Shown in pieces: positions 1 through 26,838 of a stretch of DNA of 63,280 nt. Numbering within the stretch: the first letter of the stretch is position 1; each line of letters begins with the position of its first letter. The notes under the pieces are model-generated. The model did no database searches. It was not told the origin of the DNA and was given only the letters and a program-made list of their open reading frames with translations. A program made the position numbers and the translations under genes. Source of the stretch: Welwitschia mirabilis (Eukaryota); contig JBOZIK010000001.1 of NCBI GenBank assembly GCA_051453625.1, positions 45,360,099 through 45,423,378 of the forward strand. The letters run 5' to 3'.

Positions 1-549
1 CCGACATGGACTTACTGGGTCTATGACTTGCTTATTATGATGCATTTGGTTCATTTGCATTATACGAATAGTGAACTCTAGTCTTCTTGTAGGAAAAGTA
101 ATCAGGTGAAATATAAATGATTAAGGTGCAAGCGAGGGGGAAATTAAGTGAGAAATTAAAGTAGTGACCTTAAGAGTCTATTAAGGCTTCTTTCTTTTCC
201 ACTCAACTTGCTAATCTTATTAACTTGTATTAATTTGTTATTTCTTTTATTGTATAAGAAGTGATTATGCCTCCATAATATAAAGTGTTTTGATAATCTA
301 TCTCATTTGTTTTGCAATTAATATAGTTATAACCTAAAAGAGGGAATTCCTCATTTTTCTTTAATAAATTTTACAAGTAATTTAACATCTATCCTTCATA
401 GGGAGCGGTCTAAACTTATTAGAGTGTGTACACATACCTAGAATTTGACAATAATGTTCTTGAAAGATAGAACTTTATAGTACTAGAACTCATGTAGTGT
501 ACCCACCTTAGCTGATAACCTCATGGGAAAACACTTGTTCAATGTGTAG

Positions 550-621
550 CACTGCCCAGGTTGTCACCCATTTGAGTAGTGCTCCACACTGAGCATGCTT
601 AACTCTCGAGTTATTAGGATC
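550..621 (-). mobile_element. 5S rRNA-derived segment (box A to box C), as carried in Cassandra-type TRIM LTRs; probably part of a degraded solo LTR (~514-723) in the WD40 intron
   Basis: Minus strand reads GATCCTAATAACTCGAGAGTTAAGCATGCTCAGTGTGGAGCACTACTCAAATGGGTGACAACCTGGGCAGTG. This is collinear with the plant 5S internal region (GATCCCATCAGAACTCCGCAGTTAAGCGTGCTTGGGCGAGAGTAGTACTAGGATGGGTGACCTCCTGGGAAGTC). The 5S termini are absent. Confidence 0.6.
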
Positions 622-892
622 TTTAGTCAAGCTCAGAGTGAGAATTTTTACAAGCTAGGGCATTCTTGTGTATTTGTTGTTGAACTAATCCCTCACACCA
701 CGCAGGATAATCTAGCTTTTCACATTCTTCTTGCAAGACCCAAGGGTAGGTCATGGAGTAGTATGGAATAACTCAAGAGTGATTGTGTGTAGCAGCACAA
801 CAATGGTGGACCTAGTTGCTTGGGATCGAAGGGGAGAAATTGGATGGAGGACTGTTCTGTGTTTGATGCATCTCTTGTTCTTGGAGAGCTAA

Positions 893-942
893 AATAATAA
901 TAATACTAATAATATAACAATATTATTAGTATTATTATTATT
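893..942. repeat. Perfect 23-bp inverted repeat with 4-nt loop, followed by a partial direct copy (to ~1012)
   Basis: AATAATAATAATACTAATAATAT (893-915), AACA loop, ATATTATTAGTATTATTATTATT (920-942). AATACTAATAATATAACAATATT and TATTGGTGTCCAT recur at ~981-1012. Confidence 0.85.
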
Positions 943-1839
943 GGTGTCCATCCAATACTAATAATAATAATACTAATAATAATACTAATAATATAACAAT
1001 ATTGGTGTCCATTTTTCTTATGATAACATTATATCAGTGTAATTTATTTCACTGTTTGTTAAGCATTAATAAACACAAAAATTATTGGGGATTACCTAAT
1101 CCCCTTTAGGAATTGGTCTTTGACCCTTAAAAATGATGGAGGACATCATTTTTGAAATAATGGTCTTTGACCCTTAAAAACAGCAAAGGCTACAGAATTA
1201 AAATTTCTAAGGACTTGGGAAGGGAACATGCTAAAAAGTCAAGGCATCAAGTAATATTCAAATTCATTAAAACACATTTCTTAATACGTGCCAATACCAG
1301 TACATCACGCTAGGACACCACTAACAACTGGAATATGGGCTATGCAAACATTACCACTATAACTACTTCAAAACCAATAATGTTGTGGTTCAAAAAAGTG
1401 ACTCTTTCCAATCATGTCGACAAAAAAGATCAAGAATAAGGGTCCCATGCATGAAGGTGTGGATTACAGTCAAAAAACAGTCACAAGCAAACTCATGGAA
1501 GAGAAAGGGAACAATTCAAAAACCTTATATATTCTACTAGAATAGCAAATACTAGAATAGCAAGCACTAAGGAATGTTTCTTTGGAAACAAGAAATTGAG
1601 GGAAAAAACACAAAACATATCATTCCTTTGTTCTTTGTTAGTTGGCTAATTTCATTTCCTTTTCTATCTGCAAAAAACATGTTTTCAATTGCACTGACTT
1701 AGTACTAGTGCCACCTGTTTCAACCAGTTGATCTGGTTTTAGAGCTTAATACCTTGGACATTCATCACATCTTTACCAGTTATAAAAAGACTCAATGTTT
1801 TGACTGTCTAATTCCTCATTTGAACATTTTTTGTTTCAG

Positions 1840-1919
1840 GCAATAAAATACAGTTGGAAAAACAAGTGATTGTTGGTAAAAAAAGGAAAAACTCTTCTGG
1901 GAAGATCACTGGTTTTCAA
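1840..1919 (+). CDS. Internal exon of WD40-repeat (WDR44-like) gene: NKIQLEKQVIVGKKRKNSSGKITGFQ
   Basis: Acceptor ttgtttcag at 1839, donor GTATGT at 1920. The KITGFQ motif joins in phase to FVPG in the next exon. Confidence 0.85.
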
Positions 1920-2020
1920 GTATGTTGTATAATGTAGATTTTTTCTAAAAGATGGCAAGACAATCTTACAAGGCATTATGCTGTATCGTCATAACTATGT
2001 GATTGTTTTTGCTCTTTCAG

Positions 2021-2748
2021 TTTGTGCCAGGAGATTCAAAGAAAGTGTTGATAACGTCAGCAGATTCACGTATCCGAATTGTTGAAGCTGANNNNNNNNN
2101 NNNNNNNNNNNNNNNNNNNNNNNNNNNNNNNNNNNNNNNNNNNNNNNNNNNNNNNNNNNNNNNNNNNNNNNNNNNNNNNNNNNNNNNNNNNNNNNNNNNN
2201 NNNNNNNNNNNNNNNNNNNNNNNNNNNNNNNNNNNNNNNNNNNNNNNNNNNNNNNNNNNNNNNNNNNNNNNNNNNNNNNNNNNNNNNNNNNNNNNNNNNN
2301 NNNNNNNNNNNNNNNNNNNNNNNNNNNNNNNNNNNNNNNNNNNNNNNNNNNNNNNNNNNNNNNNNNNNNNNNNNNNNNNNNNNNNNNNNNNNNNNNNNNN
2401 NNNNNNNNNNNNNNNNNNNNNNNNNNNNNNNNNNNNNNNNNNNNNNNNNNNNNNNNNNNNNNNNNNNNNNNNNNNNNNNNNNNNNNNNNNNNNNNNNNNN
2501 NNNNNNNNNNNNNNNNNNNNNNNNNNNNNNNNNNNNNNNNNNNNNNNNNNNNNNNNNNNNNNNNNNNNNNNNNNNNNNNNNNNNNNNNNNNNNNNNNNNN
2601 NNNNNNNNNNNNNNNNNNNNNNNNNNNNNNNNNNNNNNNNNNNNNNNNNNNNNNNNNNNNNNNNNNNNNNNNNNNNNNNNNNNNNNNNNNNNNNNNNNNN
2701 NNNNNNNNNNNNNNNNNGCTGATAAGGTTATTTGCAAATACAAAGGAG
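2021..2748 (+). CDS. Exon of WD40 gene: FVPGDSKKVLITSADSRIRIVEADKVICKYKG (N gap 2092-2717 probably artefactual)
   Basis: Acceptor ctttcag at 2020. VLITSADSRIRI is typical of plant WDR44-like proteins. GCTGA is present on both sides of the gap. Donor AG|GTCTTG at 2749. Confidence 0.8.
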
Positions 2749-3032
2749 GTCTTGTCTTTGTTCCTTTATGTTAAATTCCATATGTGAATGATGATTTTTT
2801 TTTTCTTTTTTGTGTTGTTCCTTCAATGTTAAACAGATAGTACTTACATATGACAGTAAAATGAAAACATCTGAAATGCTCCATTAAGAGATTGCACATT
2901 AAAAGATCAATTTAAATATTTTTGGTTTCTTCTTGTCATTGGTTTGCTATTGTTCAAGTTTTATTTCTTCAAATTCTCATGCAATATGTTTTGTCATTGC
3001 AGTTTATTGATCTTTGTCAGATTTGTTTGTAG

Positions 3033-3817
3033 GTTTTCAAAACAAATGCAGCCAAGTGTCTGCATTGTTTTGTCCAAATGGGAAGCATGTTGTTTGTGCA
3101 AGCGAAGATTCACGTGTATATATATGGAATTATGATACATCCTGCATACCTACAAAAAAACATGGAAAGATTACTTGTTTTTCAAATGAACATTTCCGAT
3201 CGAATGATGTATCAGTGGCAGTTCCTTGGTCTGGTATTACGTTTATGTTCTCTCACAGAGCAGCAGAAGATACATTGTCTTGCCAGACAAATAACGCAAA
3301 ACCTTTGGGTTTTAAGGGGACAGTTTTGGAGAATGGCTTTCTTTTGCAAACGAACAAGGGACATCAATCTGAAGGAGATTTGGAACATGCTAATCAAACA
3401 TCAGATATACATGATTCAGGTCCAGTTTTACAACATGTCAATCAGACATCAAATATGGATGACACTAAACTCTCCAAGGGGTTGAGTGGCCATCACAACA
3501 TTTATACACACTCATCGTTAGATCAATATCAGACCCTGTGTCAATCTTTACATCTTCCTGGTAATTCCAATAGTTTGAATCCTAATCATGCCTTCTTGTC
3601 CACTGCTACATGGCCTGAGGAGAAACTTCCATCCCCAAGCCTGGAATTGCCAAAGTTTCACACTTCTTATGAAATATTAACAGCTAACAATAGAAATCCT
3701 AATCACAACCGGTCCAAAGTTGCTGCAGCTTTTGCATGGGGAACAGTAATTGTGACTGCTGATCATAGTGGAGAGATCAGAACTTTTCAGAACAATGGTT
3801 TGCCCATTCGTCTTTGA
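3033..3817 (+). CDS. Terminal exon of WD40 (WDR44-like) gene
   Basis: Acceptor tttgtag at 3032. Encodes FQNKCSQVSALF..GKHVVCASEDSRVYIWN, VSVAVPW, SATWPEEKLP-like and AWGTVIVTADHSGEIRTFQNNGLPIRL*, the conserved C-terminus of this plant family. Confidence 0.92.
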
Positions 3818-4673
3818 TAATGTTCGTGGTTATTGTGGTAAATATAAGGTCATGCTGAGTCTATTTCTAAGTTTGCAGGAAGAATGTAAACTGACAGATG
3901 ATGTGTAGGATACCAGGGTCCATGATTTCTACATGTTGTCTCCCTTGCCCATTTTAATGCAAGAAGACAATATGTGTGTCATACACAGTGCACCATAAAG
4001 AAGTATTGCCATGCTATATCACATGATCCTTAAATTGCTAGTACGTGATTGTGTATATGATCTACTATTGTCTCCTTCAAATGAAGTGGCAAAAGCATAT
4101 TTTACTATTAATTTTCGCATACCTCTCCTATTCTTTACCATTACATGATCCAACCAACTAGCAGCACTTGCTGGTGTTTAAGACAACCGTTTAGTACATG
4201 ATGTTGTGAGTGAAAAGCAAAAAAGCAAGATTCCGTTCAAGAACTGGCGGGTTCATATTTCTGAAACTAAAGTGAAAAATTGTGAGGGGAGGATGCCACA
4301 TTAACCAGTGTAGCATAACTCTCCGATTCACTCTCTTTGACGCAGCACCCCTGACTCAAAGTGAAATTTTTTTCCCAATTTAAAAAAAATTGATTATGGT
4401 TAGTGACTCGGTACTCAAGCAAGTCAAAAACTTTTGACTCTTTGCACATGATAAAAAGTCAAACTTTTATATTTTTAAATTTTTCCCTACAAAGCAAATA
4501 ACACAATTTATGAAAGAATAAATATATGATTATGAATTAGATTTTTTAACACTTTCTTTCACATGTTATATTGTGAAACCAACTTTATCTGTTTTGTAAT
4601 GTTACATTTCATTGTTAATACTCATTATTTAAAGACTTACTCCAGCGAAATGTGATTTTTAAATGACGTGACC

Positions 4674-4786
4674 TTAGTATTTAGCATAGTCTTTTAAAGG
4701 TGTTGTGGGGGTTAAATATTACTTGTAATTAGTATTTACCATAGTCTTTTAAAGGTGTTGTGGGGGTTAAATATTACTTGTAATTA
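4674..4786. repeat. Tandem duplication, 55-bp unit x2
   Basis: TTAGTATTTA(G/C)CATAGTCTTTTAAAGGTGTTGTGGGGGTTAAATATTACTTGTAA at 4674 and 4729, one mismatch. Confidence 0.95.
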
Positions 4787-5614
4787 TAGAGAATACTTTT
4801 GTGTTCTAGAAAGTTCTACTCTATATCTATTTAATCTCCTTTTGAGGTTGTGTTTGGGTATCAAATTGTCTTGCACAACATTTGGATTGAGGAGTAGTTC
4901 CTACTAGGAAGTTGAGAGCTGAAGTTTGGAGCCCCACTTGACTTGTTTGTAAGCTTTTCTTTCTAATAAATGTTCCACACTATTTTCTAATGGATGTTTT
5001 TGTGAACATTTAAGGGTTTTATCTTGTATATATCTCTCTATCTTTTCTATTTGCATTTGTCTTTTACTTATCATATCTTAGCATCACATTACATACACTA
5101 GTTTGCCTTGGTGTCTTTTTGCACATTTGAAATGATTCTATGAGTTGAATAAAAAAACCAATTAAAAAAAGGTCGTATTACACTCAGTTTTCTATATTGT
5201 TCATCTGTAATGGTATCTAATGGTCATTTGAGTTCATTTTTTCATTCTTGGAATGTTTTATAGTATTATATACACTTAAGAACATAGTATATTCATAAGA
5301 CATTAATATTATGTTGCTTTTTCATATTTATTATTTGACTCTTTTTGAATCTTGTGTAAAAGAGTCAGAATCATGTGAATGAAAAAATTAATGAGTCATG
5401 CTTGATAGTATTTGGATTCTTAAGATTTTTGAAGTAAGATCTTTGTAAGCAGGCATAAAAAGAAATGGTAGGTGGCCTAGAACTTCTGTTGGAAAGTCTT
5501 TGTTTGAATGTGTTAAGGAACAATAAAAACTTATTGAAATTGCCATCAAAGTTATAGAAGCTCCATATGATTTCATGTGTCTATCTCATATTCAATATTC
5601 AAATTTTGGAGTCC

Positions 5615-5770
5615 ACATGCCTATTTATCATGGTTTAGCCATGGTATTTGGAATAACCAACTATTCCACCCCTATGCGATGATAGTCTATAAAGCGTAAA
5701 CTGCATAGGAAGCTACCTTGAAGGCAATATTCAGTCTCTTTTCCTTAGAAGATGAATCCAAGGAAAGTGC
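5615..5770 (+). pseudogene. Possible ancient Ty3/gypsy gag relic
   Basis: Fragments PIYHGL and FSLEDESK resemble Athila gag LPxFHGL and FSLxDxAK. Very degraded. Confidence 0.3.
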
Positions 5771-6994
5771 AATTTTCCTTAATATATTCATGATATGATA
5801 AATTTATTATAACCTAAAAGCTTAAGAGTAAGTTAAAAACAAAAACATTTCCAAGTACCATTAGAAGAGAAAGATAGGTTTACACTGGATAAACTATCTT
5901 GAATAATTTCCTTGTTTGTAGGCATTAAGCTTGTAGAATTAGAATCATAATAATGATTAGCATAAATAAATTTTGAGTGTCATTTGGGGATGTCCTTTCT
6001 TAGCTTTGTATTTTGGCCACATAAGTGCAAGAAAATTAATCTAGATGTGGCACATTACTTAAAAGGAAATACAATCAGGGAGTCTATTAAAAGCACTTTT
6101 CCTTCTAGAACAAAATGGAGTAACCATTTTCCATACTTTTAGCTAAATCATTTTGTAACCTTTCCCATAAAATCTTTTATAGCTAATTTTTTCTACCAAT
6201 GATAGAGTCTCTCTCAATAAGTTCAAGAAACTATTCATATTTTCAAAAACTTGATCTATTAACCTATTATATTAAATGATTTTAATATTCTCTAATTGAA
6301 ATGTTCTTAAATCAAAGAAGTAGTTATGAATCACAAAAGTGCTCATGAGGGCCAACATAAGATCACATTAGATGAATAGAAACATGTGAAAGTCATAGTT
6401 TTATAAGTTCAAAAGTAAGCACTTGGTGCATTAATAACTTCAAAATACAAAATAGTCTAGTGATCTTTTATATAAGATACCACATATCATCTAATAATCT
6501 ACTAAAATTCATTGACATCAACTTGCTAAGCTACGAGAACTTTACAGATAAGTAACTGGCATATTGATAAACTTCTTTGACTAAAATGCATTGTCTCAGA
6601 TAGGTCTTAAAGAGTTCTTGATGGGTTAGAGTTAAATACATTATTAGTGAATAAGGGAAAATTTTGATGCATATTATTGAGAGAAAACCCATCATATCTG
6701 TTATGCTTCCTTCATATTCACCGATTTCAAGAAAGTCTCAGACTTGCCTACCTGCTTGCCTCTTCTGGCACACAATGTTTTGAAGGATAATTGAACAAAT
6801 ATTAAATTATTAGGAATAATCATTATAAGATATGAAAGGGATAATTTCTTTCCTTTCTTTGAGATTACTACTTATCTCATTGATTTAGTGCAAATGTTAC
6901 CTTTCTTTAATTTTGGAGATTATCAGATTCTTCTATGCAAGCTTTGATACAAAGGAAAGCTCTTCTTTGCTGCCATTTAACTTGATGTTGGAAT

Positions 6995-7017
6995 TATATA
7001 TATATATATACATATAT
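6995..7017. repeat. (TA)n microsatellite
   Basis: tatatatatatatatacatatat. Confidence 0.85.
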
Positions 7018-8489
7018 AAATCTTTTGAATTTTTGGGACTCCATCTGAGATGTTAAGAAGGTGATGATTTGAATTAGATGGATTCTTACATGGAATTTAG
7101 ATTTACCATACCATATATTCCAAGTAACGAAAGAAATAAAAGTTTCATAAAAGCTTTTAGCTTTGTTTTTAAGAGATTTCTTTGTTTTGTTAGCCATCAA
7201 CTATTCAAGTCTTGCTTGTGATTCATATATGACATGTTGAACCTTGTGTTAATTGCACCTTGTATAGATGGGTTGAAATATGAACCAACCTCCCTACTAT
7301 AAGATTTACACATAAGACATTAGAGCTTACAACTTATAAACTTGAATTAAATCAACTACTTTATGTGTTGGTTCACAAGAAAATTAAGGATTATATTTAT
7401 GTTTAAACTTTAATATAATAAGCTATAGGAAGTTACATTAGTGTAGAATTTATAAATTTTTGTTTTTAAGTAAAAATTTTTAATGAGTACCACAAGCCTA
7501 TATTGTGTTATAGACCTAGAATCTCAATTTCACTTAACAAATGAATTTCTAAATTATCAACATCATGAAGTTTTATAATGAACAAGGAGCTAGAAATTGC
7601 ACTTGTTATTAGATATTAGTTATATTTTATAAATGTTTAATTGTTAGACTCTTTAATTTTGATAACCTATTCTCTAGAACCAAGGAACTTGTTAGAGCTT
7701 GATTTTGAGTTGTGAAAGTGGACTTGAGAAATAAAGCTTGATAAATGAGGAGTTAATGATTATAAAAAAGATACTAATTAAAAAAACAGAATAACACTTG
7801 CTGGATTAAAAAGAATTTTCTAATGCTTAACTCATAAAATAGTTGGTACAATTGCATAAATTGTGAGCTTCAATGTCTTTTGTTGGAGTCATACAATATG
7901 TAGCTTGACTTATGGTTTTATCCATGTATTCAACTTGTACTAATGCATAGGATTTAATATTTTGAGTATGAAACATAAATGGGACCTAAATGTTTGGTGT
8001 CTAACTCCAAGGAGGGAGGTACCACCCATTTGTCTTTATGTAACCACATAAACTATTGACTATATTAAGTGTAGAACAATTTCTCATGAAATAACTTTGG
8101 AAACTTTTCTCTAAAAATGTAGTCAAAAGGCTACTCACAAAGTTCTTGATTAGTTATTTCATAATTGTATTATGAAAACATATTAATTCCTTTGTTTTTT
8201 ATCTTATTTTATTTTAAAATTGGTATGCTAATATTGAAAACTATAAAATTGTGATTGAATTCTTTACAGATGCCATAATCCTAACAAAATTGGATTTCAT
8301 CTGATTATGTATCTTAGACAAATGTCATATTAAGCTATATTACATGCTAAAATTTGGCTTCCCCTAAAGAAATTAATTCATCAGAGATCATGCCATACTT
8401 ACATTACATTACACAATAAATTCTAAGAACAAGAAGAAAAATATGAATAAATCAATTAAACAATTCAAGCCTTTTGGTTGCCTCATTAT

Positions 8490-9320
8490 GTTGTTGTGTA
8501 GATTTTTTTATAAGGTGATTTTATAAGAAGACGCCAAGCTAAAAATAGAATTATTATTATATAAGAAATTTAGGTTCATTGATCTTAGATTAAAAATAAA
8601 TTTGAAATTTATGATAGTACTACACTTAAACATTGATAACAAAAGGAAAAATATTTAAAGAGAAATTAAAGAAAATTATTAGAAAATAATTTATATAATA
8701 ATATTTTAAAAAAGATAAAAAGAAGTTGATCGTAAAGAAATGCATAAATAATCTTTCATTGTAAAGTCTTCTTTATTAGAGGTTATACATATAGTTCAAC
8801 TATGTTAAACAATGTTTGTAAGATGACTATGTAGAAAGAACTAAAGAAAAATTAAAATTATTATGTGAAAAGACTAGGTTGGTTACTCTTGAATTAAAAA
8901 AATTTTTAAATATTATTATAGTACTATAATTAGATATTAATAACAAAAGGAAAGATCCTAAAAAGAAGAATAAACAATTCTCTTAAAATCATTCATATAT
9001 TAATATCTTCAAAAAGAAAGAAACTTTTTTTTAAAGAAACACATAAATAATATTCCTTCATAAAATCTACTTTTTAAAACATTACCTATATATATGTATA
9101 TATTCTAAGTTTGTTGCATAATTTGTTTCTCAGATGATTTTATAGTAAAAAGCAATAAAAATTAAAAATATTAAGTGGAAAATTTAAGTTAATTAACCTT
9201 CAATTATAATTAAACTTAAAATATAGTCTAGTGTTAATTATTAATAACATAAAAGAAAATGTTAAAAGAATTTTTTTCTTTAAAAAATTCATATAATAAT
9301 AAAATTAAAACTAAAAATTT
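8490..9320. repeat. Degenerate AT-rich tandem repeat, ~305-bp unit, ~2.7 copies
   Basis: A block like TAGTACTA..ATT(G/A)ATAACAAAAGGAAA recurs near 8615, 8920 and 9220. GATGA(C/T)T..ATAG recurs near 8515, 8822 and 9134. Confidence 0.55.
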
Positions 9321-9789
9321 TCTTATTACATCCATAGGATCTTGAAAATCTATTAGACAAAAGAGAGATACATGGCATGAATTTGAAAGATATCATTTTT
9401 AAAATTACTTTAAGTATTGGATAGAACTTGAAATACTGTGATCAAATTATTGGACTTAGTGTTCTCTCTATTTTGTATATTACCAATTGAAAGACATTTA
9501 AGAAAGATAAAATATTCATCTTTAACAATGTTTTAGTAACAAAGTCGACATGTCCATTCTTATTAAGAAACTTAAGACCATCTATTTATTTCAATTCTAA
9601 AGTAATGAGATCCCATCCTTCTAAATCTATAGAGTGCATAATAACTATGAACACATAATTCCTCTTATGTTAAAGGGAAATAGTAGCACTTAAATAAGTT
9701 GTATTTGCCTAAATGGCTTTTATAATTAATGTAAAGTATAGTAAGAAATAAGATAGAGCTATGAAAATAGTGAGAAAATAGGTAGCAGA

Positions 9790-10535
9790 AGGATGATCTT
9801 ATAGCAAGGAAGAGGAAAAAAACATTTCTTGTATTTCTAAATGTATGATTTCCAACTTTTGATTGTTGGTTTATGATACATTAAATGTGTATTTATATTA
9901 AACCCTATATTTAGAAAAGAATTTAAAAATAAAGAGGACTTTTTTTTGATAGAATTAGTAGATGCAAGATATAAATTAAAGAAATAAAACTTTTTCCTCG
10001 TATTTTCTTTTGTCCTTTTATTATCCTTTAGAAGTTCTCGTTCTCTTTGAAATTCTAGTTTAAGATTCTTCATTTAACTCCAATTTTTTGTTTTTCCTTG
10101 CATCATTCCCTTTAAGTGAAAAACATTCTTATATACTTAAGAAGTCGATGAGGTTTCAATTTATTTATTTTTTGGTTAAGGCATTTCACATCCAAATTAG
10201 ATGCATATTTTGGCTTAATTAGGTATTCTTTATATTGCTAGTATCTTGTTTTCTTTTTCCTTAATATTTAATACTTCCCATGGCTTAGTTTTATCCTCTA
10301 ATGCTACATCTTTTTATTGGTTGTTGTTATCCTAAAAATTTATTGAATCCTTCACATGAAAAGTGGTTGACATTTTTAAGTGTATAGACAAATCAATCAC
10401 ATATACATTATCAAAATTTTTTCTTCATTTGGAATGATCCAACTTTTTTGTATCATAATTTTTGCTAGTTCTTTCCTTGTACTCTTTTTCTTATATGTGC
10501 CATGAGAAGAACATAAACTTGAAAATAGGTTTGCT
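9790..10535 (-). mobile_element. Chromovirus (CRM-like) Ty3/gypsy relic: integrase C-terminus (GPF), chromodomain-like tail, PPT and probable 3' LTR
   Basis: Minus-strand fragments MAHIRK, KKVGSFQ, NVYVIDLSIHLKMSTTFHVKD and KTRY.QYKEYLIK. PPT/LTR junction AGGGAA|TGATG at 10111-10101. The left boundary is uncertain. Confidence 0.55.
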
Positions 10536-10862
10536 ATATTTTTTTTCTTGGTGAAAAAGTATATATATTAGACTAGAAAATGTACATCAAGGGGGAAAAC
10601 GCCCAGGAATAAGAGGATGATTAACTATTCAAGAAAAGGGATAGTTCGTTAACTAGTGAAGGGGAAACTAAGAAATAGAACAAAATGGTGGTGAAACTGC
10701 CTCTCTAGTGATATAGTCACAGGGAACTACCTATCTAGAAGAGTAAAAGCATAGAAAAATAAAAACATAGTGCTACTGATAGACTAGAGGTGAAAATGCC
10801 CCTTGAGACCATAAGTTACAAAAAACTTAACTTTGGTAAGGAACAAACCTGAGAGGGGTGGT

Positions 10863-11090
10863 TTAAAGCTCTCTATAGGATGGGAACATGTTACCATGAT
10901 TATAGTCGAGAAGGAATCTACCCAAATCATTAGAAGAAATCTCAAACACTTGATTTATCTCCTTAAATTCTTTGACACCTACTGGATTTTTATTTGGATG
11001 TAATATTAGGGATTTCTTCCTATAGCTTGATTTAATGGCTTGAGGGAGGGCTTTATGAGAGGGTTCTAATGTCATAAAAGGGACTTCAAC
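10863..11090 (-). pseudogene. DnaJ J-domain at the 3' end of the LINE coding region
   Basis: PFMTLEPSHKALPQAIKSSYRKKSLILHPNKNPVGVKEFKEINQVFEISSNDLGRFLLD fits the J-domain consensus (IKxAYRKxALxxHPDKNP..FKEINxAYExLSDxxxR..YD). HPD reads HPN here. Confidence 0.8.
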
Positions 11091-11529
11091 CCTTGGACGG
11101 TTGCTAGTAGAACCTCTTGTCAAGCAGCATTCATGTTAATGTCCTCCGGGGGTTGAGGCTAAATTTGGATTGAGGAAGAATCTAAAGTAGAGTTTTGTGC
11201 AGAGCTGGGGCCCGATGCTAGAGTAGAGGAGGTCTAAGCATTCCTACCTCACTCTTGAGAGTTGGATAACGGTTGATCCTGAGTTGGTTCCTAGGATGTG
11301 CTAGGGTTAGGTTCCTAAGCTATCTTCTATTGGGCCAAGGGAAAAGATATATCTTCTGAATGACCTGGGGACGAAGTCGTCCCTCTCTGGTTAGGGCTAC
11401 AATGCGTAGTGGTTTTCTCTAGAGTAGGTATCCTTTTAAGTGAAGTTCTTCTTTTGGAGGTTCTCCTAAGAGGGGTCTGATGTGGGCAACAACAGGGGAG
11501 GGAGGGGAGGGACTCTCTTGCCCTAATTT

Positions 11530-11980
11530 CTTATGATATTCTTCAAAGGGATAAGACTAATCCTAAGTGCCTTGAGGAATCCTTTTATGTAAGAACTTCA
11601 ATAAAAATAATGGCAGGTTCACCTGATACCCTTAGTTAAGAGCTTTGAGAAAAGCAAAATGGATACCTGAAAGTTTGGAGTAATTCCCTAATTGAATAAA
11701 GTAATGGTCCACGAGCTCTGCACCTAATCCCCAGGGGGCGGTAGCACCTTTCTACTAATGTATCCACTTGGCAATTTAGGAACCCCACCGAGGAAGAAGT
11801 GGAGTGCTTCATGTTGCCCTCTACTTCCAAACAGAATCTGTTCTCCTTCTGTAGGGATCTGTAGCAGCCTGGAGAAAGAGTTTTCAGTGATTTTTATAGG
11901 AATTCTTCTGAACGTGGTATGTCTTCCTCTCCATCCTCTGTAAAAGGGGGTAATATCAGCCCCCTGGTCTTCTCTAAGCT
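11530..11980 (-). pseudogene. 'Putative plant transposon protein' (PF20167/Transposase_32-like) domain within the LINE ORF2 extension
   Basis: Manual translation with two 1-nt slips: ITPFYRGWRGRHTTFRRIPIKITENSFSRLLQIPTEGEQILF..GYISRKVLPPP(W)..AELVDHYFIQLGNYSKLSGIHFAFLKALN*GYQVNLPLFLLKFLHKRI..HLGLVLSL. The family call is from memory of motifs. Confidence 0.5.
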
Positions 11981-12149
11981 CATGCAGAAGGGGTTCTTAT
12001 CCCATTACTTATACTTTTTCCCATAGAGTAGGGCATTTTTTGAAGAGGCCTGGGTCAGAAGGCTTAATTATTGATGTGGATTCCATCACGACTCTGATTT
12101 GGAAATGAAGGTACTTGATCCTCCTTACTATATTTATAGGAAAGGATAG

Positions 12150-15100
12150 GGGGACGTTATTGAAAATCAGATCATTTTTGATCCTCTAAATTTGCCAAAA
12201 CGTTAATTGAATTCCATCCAATAAATGTATATCAGGGGTGTTGCAGGTTTGGTAGTACTTCTTCATAATGAAGATTAATTCTTTGATCTGAAAGCAATGA
12301 TGAAATAGATGCTGCACTATTTCTAGATTTAATTAGCAGATGGGACAGTTTGTATCCAATTGGAATCCCCTCTTAAGAAATTCGTCTCTAGTTAAGATTA
12401 TTTGATAGTATTTTAACCAATAAAAGACCTTAATTTTTTTCCAAAATCTATTCCTTCTAATACTTCTTATATGTGTCCTCTTTCCCATATTTCTTTAGAG
12501 GGATCTACTTGGTTGAATCAAACTAATAGATATTTAAGTCAATGAGTTGTTACCAAGCTTTCTGAGTTATTTTCTTAAGTAGAACTCCCCATGATCAAGG
12601 GTCTAATCTTTAGATTTGTAATTGATCAAATCACACTAGGGCTGACCTCCTTCTTGTAGTTTCTTTAAAATTCTATATGCTCTAGTGAGGATGCAATCTT
12701 TTAGTTTTTGAATTCCCCAATCCCCTGATTCTCTTGGATAGGTAATACTCTTCCATTTACAGAGATAAATTCAGTGATGATTCTTTCCTCTTGATTAAAC
12801 ACATTCCTTTAAGATCATGTTGATTTTTTAGATCATATTTCTTGAGGGGGCCATAACAGAAAATATGTACTAGAAAGAGGAAATTAAGTAAGAATTTGTG
12901 AGAATGATTTTAGCTTTGGATTAGAGAAAGTTATTTTACCATGAATTGCATTGACTTTAGATGGATTCCAAGATGTAATTCCAGATATTAATCTTGTGCC
13001 AATTTCGAAGAGGAATACCTAGGTATATATATCTTAGAGGTATCCTAATTTTGCACTCAGGATTCAAGCGATTTCATCCCCTCTGATACTTTTTCTATTC
13101 AAAGTGTGGATTCTTGATTTATTCTAGTTGGTATGAAGCCCTGTTGACGCTACAAAGNNNNNNNNNNNNNNNNNNNNNNNNNNNNNNNNNNNNNNNNNNN
13201 NNNNNNNNNNNNNNNNNNNNNNNNNNNNNNNNNNNNNNNNNNNNNNNNNNNNNNNNNNNNNNNNNNNNNNNNNNNNNNNNNNNNNNNNNNNNNNNNNNNN
13301 NNNNNNNNNNNNNNNNNNNNNNNNNNNNNNNNNNNNNNNNNNNNNNNNNNNNNNNNNNNNNNNNNNNNNNNNNNNNNNNNNNNNNNNNNNNNNNNNNNNN
13401 NNNNNNNNNNNNNNNNNNNNNNNNNNNNNNNNNNNNNNNNNNNNNNNNNNNNNNNNNNNNNNNNNNNNNNNNNNNNNNNNNNNNNNNNNNNNNNNNNNNN
13501 NNNNNNNNNNNNNNNNNNNNNNNNNNNNNNNNNNNNNNNNNNNNNNNNNNNNNNNNNNNNNNNNNNNNNNNNNNNNNNNNNNNNNNNNNNNNNNNNNNNN
13601 NNNNNNNNNNNNNNNNNNNNNNNGTTGAGAAAGGTTTGACCTCTAATTCTAATTCCTGTAACTCCATTCCTTCTTAGGAAAACTTGTAACATATTCATCA
13701 CAAAAATGAAAAGGTATGGGGATAGGGTGTCCTCTTGTTTCAATCCTCTACCTACTGAAAGGAAATTTGATTTATGGTTATTAATCTCCACACTAAATTT
13801 TGCTAAAGCCTGTATGTCTAGCCAAAGATTAATAATATCTTAAGAAAAACTTATTTACCTAAGGATACATCCTAATGCTTATCAACTAACTGAGTTATAA
13901 CCTTTAGTGATATCCAATTTAGCAATAAGAAGAGGAAATTTGTATTTTTTAATAAAGTGAATAATCTCATGAGTCAAGAGGATTTGGTCTTGGATATACC
14001 TGGATCGGATGAAGCCAACTTGGTTCTTTGAAATCACATTAGGAAGTAGGGGGTGATACAGCCAACCATGATTTTCGCAAAAATTCTATAAGTAATATTA
14101 CAAACACCTAGAGGCTTGAAATTCTATGGTTTACTAGCATTCCTATTTTTTTAGGTATAAGTACCACTCTATTTCTGTTTATTTCCTTAGGAATCTGCCT
14201 ATTATGGAAGAATTTTTGCATCACATCATTAAGGTTATCCCCTAAAATGGAGAAGTGGGATTTAAAAAGTTCAATTAGCCATTCATTAGGGATAGGAACT
14301 CGGTTATTCTTCGTGGATCTAATAGTAGATAAGACCTCCTCTCTACTTAGAGCTTTAATCAACATAGAATTATCTTCAGTTGAGATTTTCTTATTTTCTG
14401 GAATAAGGCCAGGAGCGATATCGTCCCATTTCTAGATTCTCTTAAGATGGACCTACAATTCCTTAGCTATATGCTTTTAATTTTTTATGGTTTAAGGTCA
14501 AATGGATAATCTTCTGATCTTGTTATCTAATCTATGCTGGTTGGCTTGTTGGAAGAAGAATCTGTATGTTTATCACTCTTTTTTAGCCATTTGATCCTTC
14601 AGTGTTCTCTCTAGTAGTGTTCTTTATCAGCATTTATTTCTTAGAGATCTATTAGGCACTGATATTCTTTGTTTTGTAGACTATCCTAGTTACCTCCTTC
14701 TTCTACTCAGTTTGGATTCTTTTAATTCCCTCCTCAAGCTTGATTTTTGATTTAAACCTCTCTTTATATTTCCTTCTCCAATCTCTAAATTGAGACTTTA
14801 GGGTATTGAGGCTCCTGTATAGAAATGTTATGCATTGAGTCCCATCATACTGTGTCCATATTTTTTTCAATAGCATTCTAGTTTCTATTCAATTAATCTG
14901 ATACTATTCCATATGAAATGGAGTTTGGGTGAAATTGCCTCTACTTTACAAGCTTCAAATGGAAGTTTAGCTAGATCCTTTCCAGCCAGAACTCTGTCAA
15001 TCTTGGATATTATCAGATCTTTACCTGCTCTTCTACTCAACCCTGTATACTTACACCCAGTAATAGGAATGTCTATGAGAAAGTGTCTTACCAAAAAATC

Positions 15101-15561
15101 TTTTAGTATTGAGGAACCTTTGGAATTCTAGCTATCACACCCTAATTTTTCCCAGCGTTGAAGACATTAATTAAAATCACCTAGGATGAGCAATTTAGAT
15201 TTATCTATTACTATCCTCTAAGCTTCTTTTAAGATAGAAGCCTTATCTTGATTATTTTGGGGACTATAAAGATTTGTGCCAGTCCAACCCTCTTTTTTAA
15301 GGAGAATCGTGATGTGGTTCTTGTTACTATGAATTAGATCTACCTCTCTTTTGATAGAGATAGTAAGATCATCAAAGTTTTCTTGAGATGCAATAGTGAA
15401 GAAATTCCATTACTACATAAATTCATTTTTCCCATATCATTTTCGATCTTCATTTCCTATAAGAAAACTAGATCGATCTTCAATTAATTGATCATGTTTT
15501 GTAGGGTCTTTTTCTTATAGGAGGATCCTAATCCCTTGTAATTCTATGTGAGACAATTCAT
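12150..15561 (-). pseudogene. LINE ORF2: APE endonuclease, reverse transcriptase, zf-RVT (decayed)
   Basis: Start MNCLT*NYKGLG at 15561. ILGDF-type and SKIDRVL endonuclease motifs. RT motifs FIRSRYIQDQILLTHE, KLDITKGY and RGLKQEDTLSPYLFIF, then YLGIP. Zinc finger CPIC..EIVQHLFHHC and WQI*RIKNDLIFNN. Confidence 0.9.
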
Positions 15562-16760
15562 TGGGGGGTTTTTTCCATCCTTTTTTGGGTGCTTTACCTT
15601 TCTTTAGGATATCCTTAATGATGGATTGGAAACTATTTGCAATGTTTTCTATTGTTTCTCATTCTCAGAGAATTCTATTGCTAGGCCTTTCCTTTGTTTG
15701 AGTTTCCACTTTATTAGGTTCATCATCATTTAGAGGTTGTTGGGTGTCTTTCTCTTCTACAAGAGGTTGAAAGGAATAATTCTCTAGTTCTTGTACTTTT
15801 TTTGTTGCTATCCTTGATTTCCTTGGAAAAAATAGTAGTACTTTTTTTCGTTTATTTCTTTCTTTGCTTATGTTAGTATGTGTTCTGATTGTAATCAATT
15901 TTCCCACAAAACATATAAGCTTTCTTTAGCTTTTCTTCAATATTAATCAATTGTTTTTTACATCTCTTAGATGACCCAATCTTCCACAATGTAAGCATTT
16001 CTTTTCAAAAGGATCACATCTTCCAGAGAGATATCCTAATTTTTCATGGACTGTGTAAGAAATAGGAAGATTCTTATAAGTGATGTCAAGCTCACAAATA
16101 CCCCATTTAGATCTAAATTTTACAGATTGGATCTCCTTAATATCCTATAAGCTTATCCAAATATAAAATCTAGCTAACACTAGTCTTGTCTGTTTAATAG
16201 TGATCCTGTCGAGTTTGATGAGTTTGTTAAACTGAGTTGTCATTTTCCTTAAACTCCAATGGGAACTTATGGATTCATATCCAAATCGGTATCCTCTTAA
16301 ATAAATTCGGGTCTAATTTCATGCCCAACATCCATTTGGCTAGGGTAAGACCTTGAACCCCAAAAAACTAAGGTCCTCTTGCAATTATTTCACCCTGACA
16401 TCCTTAAAGTTAATTTTTCACTTATCAATGCAAATTTGCTGTCTTAAGTTAAATTGATTTATTGATCTTGAAGAAGTAAAATTTCTTGTCATAAGATTTG
16501 GAGTCATGGGATTTCATCCGTAAATAACCTGAAGTGATGTTTTTCCTTCTACTTCTATAAATGGAATTGTTAAAATTCAATTCAACTTGAGCAATCTTCT
16601 CTTTCTATTGCTTTGGATTCCATTTGCTTAAATACCTGAAAATATTTTCTGCTTTTATTTATTACTTTAGCTTCTTCCTCAATTTGAGGATGGAATGCTA
16701 AAGAAAAAATCAAACTGGCTCCCTTGAGCTTTAAAATACTTCTCCAAAATGAGATATAAA
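15560..16760 (-). pseudogene. LINE ORF1 (DUF4283 + CCHC zinc knuckle)
   Basis: RGP*FFGVQGLTLAKW, IPIWI*IHKFPLEF, KLDRITIKQTRLVLARFYI, YKNLP and KCLHCGRLGH. Confidence 0.8.
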
Positions 16761-16769
16761 TCTAACACA

Positions 16770-17070
16770 ATCGTTAGAAACAACGTTGTTTGACACTTTA
16801 TGGAGCCTTACTACTTTAAAGAATAATCTAGCTACATAAACTTCATCTTCATTCTTACTACATGGTACAAAATGTGATGTCTTAGAAAATCTATAATGAC
16901 TAAAATGGTATAAACCCCTTTCTTAGTTTTAAGAATCTTAAGTATTAAATCCATGCTAATGCCATTCTATGGTTTAAATGGGATAGTCAATAGCTGATGT
17001 ATATCTTATTAATTCTTTTCTTCTTTTTCCCTTTGATATATTAATGAACATAAAGATTTATGCATTCAAG
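16770..17070 (-). pseudogene. Chromovirus integrase core fragment (other half of the relic split by the LINE)
   Basis: IPFKP*NGISMDLILKILKTKKGVYTILVIID..SKTSHFVPCSKNEDEVYVARLFFK.VVRLHKVSNNVVSN matches PWxDISMDF..VVDRFSKMAHFIPC..LFFxEVVRLHG..IVSD. Confidence 0.75.
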
Positions 17071-20000
17071 TTGATGTTTTTATGATTTTTATGATTAATA
17101 CATGTGACTTTCGTATTGATAACTAGATGTTTTTTTAATAAATTTATTATTAGTTAGTAGTATATGCATTATTATGATTTTTGTATGTATAAGATATCAT
17201 TTGGTAAACACATGCTAGAGAAAAACAAATGCCTAAAAGGTAGGAACCACTTTTCTTGATACTGCTACTTCTAAGAAGCCAAAATAGGAACTATGAAGGA
17301 GGAAGTTAGAAGATAAGAATAAAAGAGAAAAGGGAAAGGTAGTAATAGATCTTTGGTAAAACGAAAGAGGATGAAAATCCTAAGCTAAATATTAAAAAGT
17401 GAAGATGCTCCAGTGTATTATAGATGGAGTAGCATGTGTCTTGCAAGCTCCAGTGTAATCTTAAAAGGGGAATACTATCATTGGTACATTCTGTAATAGT
17501 TTTATCTTTTTCATTAAGATAAGATGTAAGCTAAAAGGCTATTTATTTATAATGGTATTACATGTTAAAAAGTACTATAAGTAGTGATACTACTTAAAAA
17601 AGTAGTATTTTTACTTTCTTGCACTTGTATCCAAAGTTGGGTGGATACTTAAGATATAGAAATGCTTAGAAATACGTATTGTTTAGATTTATTCTATTAA
17701 TACTTTTTTAATAATAACTTCACACTATTTCCCTGTATATAACTAGTAAAACACTATACTATTCTAAGAAGTGATTTTGAGAGGTTTTGAAGTCACTAGA
17801 TTTTATAAGGTAGTTACTTTCAATAATCAAAGAAATAAGCTAATAAAAATTTCATAAGTTGTTAATAAGCAAGTTATCAACTTAAAATTTTCAAGTTGAT
17901 CATTTTCAAAAAGTAATCTTATAAACATAATTTGAACCAAGTTAGTTGAGAATTTAATCATCTTATTTAGTTATTTAAGTGAACCTTTATTATTTGTTAA
18001 ATGATATGAGCTTACTTTATGTTAATAGCCACATTGTTTTTTGTATTTTCCATCATAATTTATATTGCTTTGCATTAAGTTTTTTAATAATAAGCTTTCA
18101 TAATTTTTGACTCTTGAACAAGGGCCTTTTTAATGTTTACTAACCAAGATAATGAATCCTATAATTTAGAGAGATAGTCAAGAAAAATGGAGAAATAAGA
18201 AAGAGAGTTTTGTCAAAAGCCCTAAGAAATATAACTTGAAGGAACAAAAAGAGAAGTAGAAGAGAATAGTAAGAAAAGTATCAATACTAAAAGCAGAAGG
18301 TGGTTTGTTTATTTCTAAGCACATTAGTCTATTAGAGGAAGTTGCAAAAAAGGTAACTAATAGTATGATTGAAAAATTTGATAAACTAGATGTACATCAT
18401 TTAAAAAGCAATGAAGGACATATTTGTGAACATTGTAATGAATATGATCAGAATGGAACTGACTACCCTGAGTTGTAAGAAGTTTTTTTGGTGACTAGAT
18501 ATTACTAAGTTAGATCTAAATTTTGGAAACTAATCTCAAACTACATGAAATTGATATCCATATCAAAGTAAGAAATGGTAGAACAAAATAAAAAAATCAT
18601 GTAAAAGTATGTCACCTTTAAGAGATAGCAACAAACAAGGTATTATAAAAATTTAAAAAATAAAGATCATGATAAAAGAAAAGAAACACAAGAAGTCAAG
18701 AAGAAGGTAGGGAAAATTCCTACTCAACTATAAACTAATCCTAGATAATCGAGTAGTAAGGCTATAACTATAAGATCTAGAAAACCCAAATTAATTGATT
18801 AGAAACCTTGGAAGATAATGACAACTCATCACTTTGGTGATAATAATAGCATAAAAACAATCTAAAAATTTAGCCTCTCTAATGGAAAGTGAGTGGCTAA
18901 GCATCCTAAGATTAAAAATGATATTACATATCTAGAAAAATATTCAGTAGAATTACCAATCATAAAACTACTAAATGATGTACCCATTTATTAAAGATAG
19001 ACAAAGAGCCTGTATTTGAAATCTAAAACCTCTAAGAAGAAGAAACAAATTAAAATGGCAAAAATGGACCAAGTCTTTTAGACTTCTATACAAGTTCTTC
19101 AAAATAAACAATATGAAAAATATAGCAAACCTAGATTACTAATGACTATAAAAAGGATTTACAATAAATTTAAATTAAAAGCTCTAGTTGATTTAAGAGC
19201 AAGTCTTAATGTTATGCCATATGAAATGCATGAAGAATTAGAAAATCTAGAATTATCACCCTCTCATGGAAACATATATTTGGTAGATGGTTTTGTAGTA
19301 GTATTTAAAGGAATTCTCAAAGATATATCAATTTGAATCCAAGTGTTTATTTATCTAATGGAAAAGCAAGAAGATACCTATGAAGTCATTTTTAGAAAGA
19401 TAACAGATGATCACCGGAGATGTAACTATTTATTCTAGGAAAGGGGTTATGAAAATTAGTCTAGAAGAATTTAAACAAGTAATTAAATAATTTAAAGCTC
19501 TAGTATTAGAAGATATGATATCTACCATGGAATCTAGGATCAACTTTATCTTAAGTCAAGAAGCTCATATGATTCTAAAATAGCAGAATTGGAAAAAGTA
19601 CAAAGGATAAAGCCTAACACCTTAAGATATCAAAAAGCCAAGTCTTAAGGAAGGATTACAGTATATGGATGTAGCCTCAAATAAACCTATGATTATTAAT
19701 AGTAATTTAACTTATTCTTAGAAAAAGACTCTTTAAAAAAATATTAGTAAAAAGAAAAGAAGCCTTTGCTTAGAATCACATTGATATTAAAAGAATAGAT
19801 CTAGTAAAATATTAGCACAAGATTTATTTGGATACTTCCATTAAATTAAGATGACATCCTAAAGTAAGGTGCAATACACATATGAAGGAAGTAATGAAAA
19901 TAAAAAATTTTCAAAATCTTATGGATTTTCATCTATCTATATTGGACTTAGAGTAAGTAAGTTCTTTTAATAGTGCCAAATAAAGAAAATAAATGGAGAG

Positions 20001-24800: not shown

Positions 24801-26838
24801 GAAGAAGCTTTGAAAAGACTAGAAGCTGTATTAACTCTGTATGAAGAAAAAAATTGAAATTAAGCTGGTTTAAAAGTCATCTTATGATGGTTGAAGGGCT
24901 TGTTTTAGACCATAGGATATTAATAAGAGGGATTAAAATTGATGATAAAAAACTAATGTCATCAAAGAAGTTTTCCTATCAACTAAACTAAGAGAACTAA
25001 AATCATTCTTGGGTCATGTGGTGTATTATAGAAGATTTACTACTAATGTTAGTAAAATTACTAAACCAGTAAGCAATCTTCTACAAAATGATGCACCCTA
25101 TGAATGGACCCAAAAATGCCCAAAAGATTTTTAAATTCTTAAATAATAAGTTGGTTGAGACCCCATTTTACAAAAACCAGATTGAGATAAAACCTTATAC
25201 ATTATGATTGATGCTTCACAATATGCTGTTGGTGTATTTTGGAATAGAAAGATGATGATTATAAACCCTATGCTATTGCTTACATATAAAAAATCTCAAT
25301 TCTACACAATAAAGCTACATAGTTACAGATAAAGAGATGCTAGACATGGTGGTAGCCTTAGATAATTTTAGGCATTAGGTCTTTGGTTACAAAGTTAAAA
25401 TTCATACAAATTATAGTGCCATATAGTTTTTAGTGAATAAGAAAGAAGAAAATTCTTATATCATAATATGGATACTTTTGATGCAGGAATTTGATTTGAA
25501 GATAATAGACAAGAATGGGACAGAGAATGTGATGGCTGATCACCTATCTAGATTGGAATTCCTTGAAGAGGCTAAACAAATGAACATCCAAAATCATTTC
25601 CCTGATGATCATTTAGCAAGTTTGCAATAAGCACCTTCGTTTACAAATATTTCTAACTTCTTAGTAAGTAAAAAGTCACGTCCTTATCTAAACTACTATG
25701 AGAAAAAAAGGTTGTTAAGAGAAGTGAAAGATTGTATATAGAAGAATAAAATCCTCTTCTAATTTTGTAAGGATGATGTCATTAGGAGATGTGTTGGAGA
25801 GCCTAATTAGAAGGATCTTCTGCAAATTTTTGATGTATAGCAAGGAGGAGGTCATTATGGAGGAAAAAGAATTGCTATAAAAATTCTCAGTGTAGGATAT
25901 TATTGGTTTTTTCTATTTAAGGACTCTTTTAACTATACCAAAGGATGTGATAAGTGTCAAAGAGAGGGAGCACAGTTAAAGGTGATGGAAATGCCCCAAC
26001 AATGGATTTAAGCCTTGAAACCTTTTGATGTCTAGGGAATAGATTTCATTAGATCCATTAATCCAAAATCCTATAGAAAAGAGTACATTCTGGTCTATGT
26101 GGATTATTTGACTAAATGGACTAAATCCAAGGCTGTTCCTAACTATTCTACTAAAACCGTATTTAAATTCCTATCTAGCAGTAGCTTTTACTAGTTTGGT
26201 ATGCTTAGGAGTCTTATAGCAGATAAAGGGACCCATATCACTAGTCAAGCCATTCAAAAGTTCTTGTCTAAGTATGGAGTCCATTATAAACTCTCTTTTG
26301 CTTATCATCCTTAGTCCAACGATTATTGCTGAGGTTACAAATAAGGAGTTAAATCAAATTTTAACAAAAATAGTGAACACTAAATGAACCAATTGGGCAT
26401 CTAAACTTACTGAAGCTTTATGAGCCTATAGGAGTTAAGAAAACAATGTTGATTTCACACCCTATGAGTTAGTCTATGGTAAAAAGGTAACTTTACCTAT
26501 TGAATTAAGAATAAAATCTTATAAATTGGCTAAACAATTAGATCATAATCTAGATAAATCTCAAAAAGAATGGATCCAGACATAAATAAATTAGATGAAG
26601 ATAGAAGAAACACCCTAATAAGAATTGAATTGATCTAAAAATAAGTAAAAGAGTGGTACAAAAATAATGTTCATAAAAATAATTTTAAAATTAGAGATAA
26701 AGTCTTGGTTTTCAATCCTAAATATATATCCTTAAAACAAAAGTATAACAAAAAATGGATTGGACCATATACTTTAATAAAAATTTTACTTGATAGAGTA
26801 ATGGAAGTGTTAAATGAAGAAACTAAAGACATGTATCA
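21810..26838 (+). pseudogene. gag-pol of B (decayed)
   Basis: IPTFKGRKNEEPMLHL and LRHFPLFLK (gag), CEYCTKENHHPIEC knuckle, ALVDI protease, [61 protein letters not shown], integrase CDKCQR and GIDF. Confidence 0.92.

Follow-up and report, generated by a model that had tools for sequence, protein, structure and literature searches.

Within a 63,280-nucleotide window from Welwitschia mirabilis (contig JBOZIK010000001.1 of assembly GCA_051453625.1, positions 45,360,099 to 45,423,378 of the forward strand), the minus strand from 16391 to 10539 carries the decayed parts of a long interspersed nuclear element (LINE) and, behind its zinc finger, a module that ends in a J-domain. The interval is probably a single copy, dead and 5'-truncated, of an L1-type plant LINE present in high copy number, whose second open reading frame (ORF2) runs in frame into the module, which would have been captured. 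Coordinates are positions in the window, that is, in the whole stretch that was analyzed, and both the module and the LINE lie on the minus strand.

The upstream parts of the copy are heavily decayed. A remnant of ORF1, DUF4283-like, lies at 16248-16391 (PF14111, 18.6 bits, E 0.0016, cut-off of 27.2 not reached), and the copy seems to be truncated at its 5' end near here. At 15950-16144 a CCHC-like piece was noticed by eye only, and a Pfam search of this piece returned no match. The endonuclease (EEP) remnant of ORF2 follows at 14966-15274 (PF14529 Exo_endo_phos_2, 17.7 bits, E 0.0033, cut-off of 27.4 not reached). The reverse transcriptase remnant at 13627-14085 consists of two consecutive RVT_1 pieces, 13885-14085 (E 1.8e-4, profile positions 34-82) and 13627-13839 (E 0.045, profile positions 83-139), both under the cut-off of 29.6, and an N gap at 13158-13623 takes out the remaining middle of the domain. 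The zf-RVT (CCHC) zinc finger of ORF2 at 12291-12473 exceeds its threshold, with a PF13966 score of 33.8 bits against a cut-off of 27.5 (E 5.5e-8). No RNase H family was matched in Pfam at E ≤ 0.01 in any minus-strand frame of 9400-17599. The original prediction had placed the module where RNase H usually sits, and the module does follow the CCHC finger as RNase H does in Ta11-type L1 elements, as these are described in excerpts of PMC5348765. Downstream of the module a 3' untranslated region (UTR) of ~310 nt, 10554-10862, has 5-8 stops per 103 codons in each frame and a read depth of 1871-7663, and a remnant of the poly(A) tail, 8 A, stands at 10539-10546. A comparison of 16300-16480 with 10470-10600 found no shared word of 7-16 bases and no near match of 12-18 bases that could be a target-site duplication; this negative is weak evidence because of the age of the copy and the imprecise mapping of its 5' end. 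As for a second copy within the window, blastn returned the self-match only and blastp of ORF pieces nothing below E 0.039.

The frames past the zinc finger were read from a three-frame translation of 12400-10700, in which every peptide quoted in the original prediction was found on the minus strand at the position given. The tail of ORF2 (..FWQI*RIKNDLIFNN..IRVV, 12093-12290, an asterisk marking a stop) is in the zf-RVT frame, has a GC content of ~0.33 and contains one TAG, at 12186-12188, directly before RIKND. From there a run of about 150 codons with just two TAA stops had been claimed; the measured run has 153 codons, from RIKNDLIFNN (12185) to KVLPPPGD (11727), and two TAA. The five remaining frames of this stretch have 2, 5, 8, 13 and 16 stops, and among 5000 shuffles of it the mean was 8.9 stops (standard deviation 2.8), with two or fewer in 0.44%. 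The run leads from the ORF2 tail into the first part of an extra domain (MESTSIIKPSDPGLF .. KVLPPPGD, 11727-12092), which is in frame with ORF2, and no stop, UTR or A-run lies between the two. A step in GC content occurs at ~12100, from ~0.33 in the LINE to 0.43-0.50, with 0.43-0.48 in the first part of the extra domain. The 1-nt slip that had also been reported is present as a frame shift near 11734, due to the deletion of one base at 11733-11734, and after 11727 reading goes on in another frame. This second part of the extra domain, WGLGAELVDHYFIQLGNYSKLSGIHFAFLKALN*GYQVNLPLFLLKFL.. at 11566-11751, has one stop in 62 codons, at 11632-11634; the whole post-slip frame over 11751-11566 reads AELVDHYFIQLGNYSKLSGIHFAFLKALN*GYQVNLPLFLLKFL, and reading across the slip at ~11734 gives WGLGAELVDHYFIQLGNYSKL..NLPLFLLKFL. 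Behind a variable C-rich linker (11136-11565), an open frame of 90 codons at 10866-11135, closed by a stop at 10863-10865, holds a complete J-domain with its core at 10929-11069. In the window copy a single frame takes in the zf-RVT match, the opening part of the extra domain and the J-domain.

The J-domain was matched by PF00226 with 34.2 bits against a cut-off of 27.8 (E 2.7e-8) in the open 90-codon frame 11135-10866, and with 27.9 bits in the long read-through translation. Its closest relatives of solved structure are dnj-12 (2och, E 2.5e-8) and DNAJA1 (2lo1, E 1.9e-6), aligned over query residues 28-77. The 90 codons contain no stop, in a copy that elsewhere has about one stop per 50-75 codons, and a fully open J frame in a decayed copy favors constraint on the folded parts. 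As a separate observation, RNA reads (8-10 in run X17, 4 in run X14) match just the 48-base core of the J-domain at 10949-10996, with uniform loose ends on both sides and an agreement of 0.94-1.0. This suggests that an expressed, more diverged J-domain paralogue exists, either another member of the family or the donor gene.

The linker was described in the original prediction as rich in S, T, P and Q. In the frame used there these four residues do make up 46%, although the coding status of that frame is not demonstrable from the window copy. Among the stops of 11136-11600 on the minus strand TAG predominates, with 5/9, 6/6 and 6/10 in the three frames, which points to an unusual richness of CTAG/TAG words in this C-rich stretch. 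Two TAG stops stand at 11557-11565.

The extra domain comprises ~180 residues, from 12086 to ~11540, and had been likened to PF20167, PF03078 and PF10536. That assignment found no support in Pfam, where zero families were matched by the separate pieces at E ≤ 1 or by P0001, P0003 and two frame-B stretches at E ≤ 10. Likewise, phmmer against 1.84 billion representatives returned no PF20167-type protein. At E ≤ 0.001 it gave two matches to a 90-residue piece, of which only P0001 is a real relative, the second being a repetitive protein with 20 aligned residues. P0001 is an orphan ORF of 91 residues, of transcriptome origin and labelled Welwitschia mirabilis, and matches at 68% identity (E 4.4e-18). 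Its initial Met aligns with the window Met at 12086, and its residues Q and W stand at the two TAA stops of the window. Word-indexed protein searches with A1 (812 candidates), the J piece (22) and P0003 (12) left no scoring candidate, a weak negative since even P0001 was missed with P0003 as the query.

Feature-based and structural comparisons were also made with the extra domain. In the ESM Atlas feature search, the 90-residue piece fell near a cluster whose members bear PF20167 in 58% of cases (score 0.90, 164 shared features, just below the 170 or more that 9 of 10 same-family matches share in calibration) and near an ATHILA cluster at 0.88. The same search yielded nothing usable for the second piece, of 39 residues. 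AlphaFold2 on the two-sequence alignment A1 reached a mean predicted local distance difference test score of 38.5, and the model is too poor for a fold comparison. The likeness of these features to PF20167 is a lead rather than a test, by which an origin as cargo of long terminal repeat (LTR) elements stays unproven; whether the extra domain is distantly homologous to PF20167 and Athila ORF1 may be called evenly balanced.

Public reads and contigs were aligned to 9900-13150 at 80% likeness, with two DNA runs, X1 and X3. All statements about the family draw on this one read alignment, for which the listed output comprised 16 of 33735 pieces and 40 of 1160 differences. Depth, which is a sum of contig word depths and not a copy number, was 15.9-93.8 (X1) and 26-105.6 (X3) in the six flank bins of 9900-10553, and 333-7232 (X1) and 307-9915 (X3) in all 24 bins of 10554-13150. 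The two bins beside the junction of ORF2 tail and module, 11971-12079 and 12080-12188, have depths of 1209/1611 and 3267/5181 in the two runs. Their difference falls within the scatter of the LINE proper (913-5344 in X1), and there is no drop of depth at 12090. Piles of loose ends were listed at 10554, 10594, 11061, 11734, 12284, 13030 and 13146, and none of the piles listed is near 12090. At the family boundary, 10554, 118 records (X1) and 97 records (X3) run into 16 T on the plus strand; this T run is the poly(A) tail of the family, downstream of the J-domain and the 3' UTR. The junction is bridged by record 15 of X3, a 318-nt contig with 49 other letters in 257, which at 81% likeness represents another copy; it covers 11921-12177 and reaches more than 31 letters to either side. 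Because depth stays high across the junction, a contig bridges it and the poly(A) end lies 3' of the J-domain, the module is taken as part of the LINE family and not as its neighbor.

The same alignment shows which breaks belong to the window copy alone. Before 11734, the loose ends of 51 (X1) and 44 (X3) records consist of the window's preceding letters plus one extra letter, so the slip is a deletion private to the window copy. At 11633 the other letter is carried by 2074 of 2108.9 (X1) and 3483.6 of 3536.1 (X3) depth units; this majority letter gives a sense codon, and the stop at 11632-11634 is thus private as well. With these two breaks private, the frame of the family would be open at both places. 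At 11981 the majority letter encodes the residue of P0001. The module belongs to the repeated unit, upstream of the poly(A) end of the family, and two breaks or more are confined to the window copy. Where the X1 reads differ from the window, the changes are mostly transitions (C>T at 191, G>A at 264, A>G at 190 and T>C at 162 places, each transversion at 11-41), an excess that fits the long-term deamination reported for the Welwitschia genome of 29% GC in excerpts of PMC8275611. RNA reads at 80% likeness reached a depth of 0-5 and mostly continue into unlike sequence. They indicate low-level transcription of some diverged copies and no more.

Depth is uneven within the module. In the four bins of 11099-11534 the linker has a depth of 307-787, against 1200-9900 in the adjoining domain bins, that is, 5-10 times lower. 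Such a pattern is expected under constraint on the domains in a master lineage, and it favors that reading.

These data favor, as the probable explanation, a LINE family whose ORF2 continues into the module, and several points weigh against it. The profile scores of ORF1, endonuclease and reverse transcriptase are all under the Pfam cut-offs, no intact copy was seen, and only one clearly bridging contig is found among the 16 of 33735 pieces listed, in an alignment whose depth does not count copies. The linker at 11565-11136 has 6-9 stops per ~143 codons in each of the three frames, no better than the 3' UTR, so that the extra domain and the J-domain are not shown to lie in one continuous ORF. 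Restoring the private deletion at 11734 puts the J-domain out of frame unless the linker holds further indels, and no indel with a majority share in the linker is among the 12 of 27 indels listed. Between helices II and III the window copy has HPN in place of the HPD tripeptide; one G-to-A change on the coding strand suffices for this replacement of D by N, and the letter of the family at this codon is not among the 40 of 1160 differences listed. The J-domain is secure as a fold family, and HPN makes its activity in the window copy uncertain. The GC step at ~12100 also fits a separate gene, as does the Met of P0001 at the exact start of the module, and an open frame in most copies could mean recent capture without selection. 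Of the architecture originally proposed, endonuclease, reverse transcriptase, zinc finger, PF20167-like domain, linker and J-domain in one reconstructed protein, the membership of the module in the LINE holds up and two of the breaks are private, whereas the PF20167 label is unsupported by profiles and an unbroken ORF into the J-domain is unproven.

The best surviving alternative, though an unlikely one, is a non-coding passenger, in which part of a J-protein gene, retro-copied or transduced, came to lie 3' in a master LINE and was amplified with it, but was at no time translated or selected within ORF2. The stop-rich linker, the degenerate HPD loop of the window copy and the GC step at the start of the module would all suit a passenger, and a P0001 Met at the first residue of the module is what capture of a whole coding sequence would leave. 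An open majority frame is likewise expected soon after capture. Three observations argue the other way. The module begins in frame with ORF2, with none of the signals that would end the LINE between them; the folded parts are 5-10 times deeper than the linker, where a neutral passenger should decay evenly; and the J frame is open over 90 codons, compared with 2 stops per 100-150 codons elsewhere in the copy.

Quite improbable is a separate downstream frame, an ORF3, or a division of the element's module over two frames, translated from the Met at 12086 and unfused to ORF2. The alignment of this Met with the start of P0001 and the unfixed position of the J-domain frame relative to that of the extra domain agree with such an arrangement. 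However, the only stop between the ORF2 tail and the Met is the TAG at 12186-12188, 33 codons upstream, and P0001 may simply begin at whichever Met follows a decay stop in its transcript. Chance juxtaposition or an assembly join of a 3'-truncated LINE with an unrelated repeat or pseudogene would account for the GC step, for a shared frame that arises by chance in one case of three and for a window that offers no second copy for comparison, yet it is very unlikely in view of the continuous depth, the lack of a listed pile of loose ends at the junction, the diverged contig that bridges it in an independent run and the absence of an N run there. A related candidate, a 3'-truncated LINE abutting an independent copy of a gene, had been raised from the GC step and the Met of P0001 and was dropped on the evidence of the read alignment.

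Under the preferred reading of an ORF2 fused to the module, ORF2 of the family would pass the CCHC finger in frame into a captured module of ~410 codons, with RNase H absent at that place. The module would consist of a lineage-specific domain of ~180 residues, a fast-evolving C-rich linker and a C-terminal DNAJA-like J-domain, after which a 3' UTR of ~310 nt and the poly(A) would complete the element. Its source was presumably richer in GC, either a gene or another element, and recombination or template switching may have joined the module to the LINE at the site of RNase H in Ta11-type L1s. Plain 3' transduction is unlikely because the ORF2 tail passes into the module with neither a stop nor a UTR or A-run between them. 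In active copies, a J-domain that bears HPD could stimulate the ATPase of host Hsp70, and the ORF2 protein or ribonucleoprotein (RNP) would thereby come with a chaperone of its own, of use in folding, RNP remodelling or nuclear entry. A farther-reaching proposal is offered tentatively and is rather doubtful in its entirety: that a gnetophyte L1 lineage swapped the RNase H slot for this module and became the first retrotransposon known with its own J-protein, that its ORF2 protein recruits Hsp70 in cis, that the upstream domain is a distant member of a PF20167 and Athila-ORF1 superfamily common to LINEs and LTR elements, and that the module aided the very high copy number.

LINEs seldom fix foreign domains (RNase H, the SF1 helicase in insect R1 and few others), and each such domain informs on a host function that limits retrotransposition. 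If the reading is true, a J-domain encoded by a LINE points to Hsp70 recruitment as a limiting step, and the family would be a natural system for testing the chaperone dependence of the ORF2 protein. In addition, hundreds of J-domain LINE copies could inflate the counts of "DnaJ" genes in annotations of this genome.

The surroundings were surveyed as well. The scaffold is a draft; the window has eight N runs of 100-971 bases, and its GC content per 2 kb is ~0.15-0.37, a range that, with the label of P0001, suits a gnetophyte host of AT-rich genome. The flanks of the LINE on the minus strand, 16449-16966 and ~10400-10538, look by eye like consecutive parts of a decayed Ty3/gypsy integrase, with the core upstream and a C-terminal part of the 'F.V.D.VLL...KL..K..GPF' type just past the poly(A). 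Pfam, tblastn against the window and phmmer against PDB gave no support for this, and a single insertion of LINE plus module is not relied on. On the plus strand, 2003-2090 and 3011-3817 are open frames with WD40-like wording (SADSRIRIVE, SEDSRVYIWNYD, TADHSGEIRTFQN) and resemble exons of a host gene interrupted by an N gap. An open frame like the C-terminal part of an integrase lies at 26645-26836 (plus strand) before an N gap at 26839, and two retroelement-like ORFs of 113 and 154 residues lie at 31542-32399 (minus strand). In blastp of ORF pieces, the frames at 26645-26836 and 31542-32399 had no similarity to the LINE module.

Domain capture at the C-terminus of a LINE ORF2 is already known, and a J-domain as the cargo was not found described. 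A full-text literature search turned up no description of a LINE or other retrotransposon with a J-domain; supplements and Repbase, where the family may be recorded, lay outside that search. Neither DnaJ nor LINEs come up in the main text of the Welwitschia genome paper, although its supplements may contain the family. Among cellular J-proteins, DNAJA chaperones have an N-terminal J-domain, followed by G/F and zinc-finger regions. About 50 residues of the window J-domain, covering helices II-III and the loop, align with the DNAJA-type domains of dnj-12 and DNAJA1; unlike these, it is C-terminal, stands behind a linker and has HPN. The large T antigen of polyomaviruses engages host Hsc70 with a J-domain of its own. 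It offers a proposed functional analogy, as another selfish replicon with a J-domain, and differs in belonging to a DNA virus and in the N-terminal position of the domain.

For the extra domain, the closest candidates are found among LTR elements. According to excerpts of PMC11728184, PF20167 (Transposase_32) has Athila ORF1 as a relative and is present in an extra ORF on the 3' side of a sunflower Athila. The likeness of the window domain to PF20167 and to PF03078 (ATHILA ORF-1) lies in its ESM Atlas neighborhood, 0.90 and 0.88, and in motifs compared by eye. The extra ORFs of Athila differ in being separate ORFs of Ty3/gypsy LTR elements and not parts of a LINE ORF2, and those excerpts report a J-domain for none of them (PMC11728184).

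The nearest precedents for the arrangement itself come from other LINEs. In the parts of PMC5348765 that bear on it, Ta11-type plant L1 elements are described as having acquired an archaeal-like RNase H at the C-terminus of ORF2, beyond the CCHC motif, and RNase H capture at this end is given for plant and oomycete L1. The window LINE resembles Ta11-type L1, as described in the same parts, in its putative endonuclease and reverse transcriptase, in its CCHC finger and poly(A), and in an acquired domain after the CCHC motif (PMC5348765). It differs in that it has no RNase H match and in its cargo, an orphan domain and a J-domain. A second precedent is provided by insect R1 LINEs, whose ORF2 has an extra C-terminal SF1 helicase domain, as stated in excerpts of PMC4686597. 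R1 belongs to another LINE clade, lives in another host and has another cargo, the source of which was virus-like, but according to these excerpts its ORF2, like that proposed here, has been lengthened at the C-terminus by a captured foreign domain (PMC4686597).

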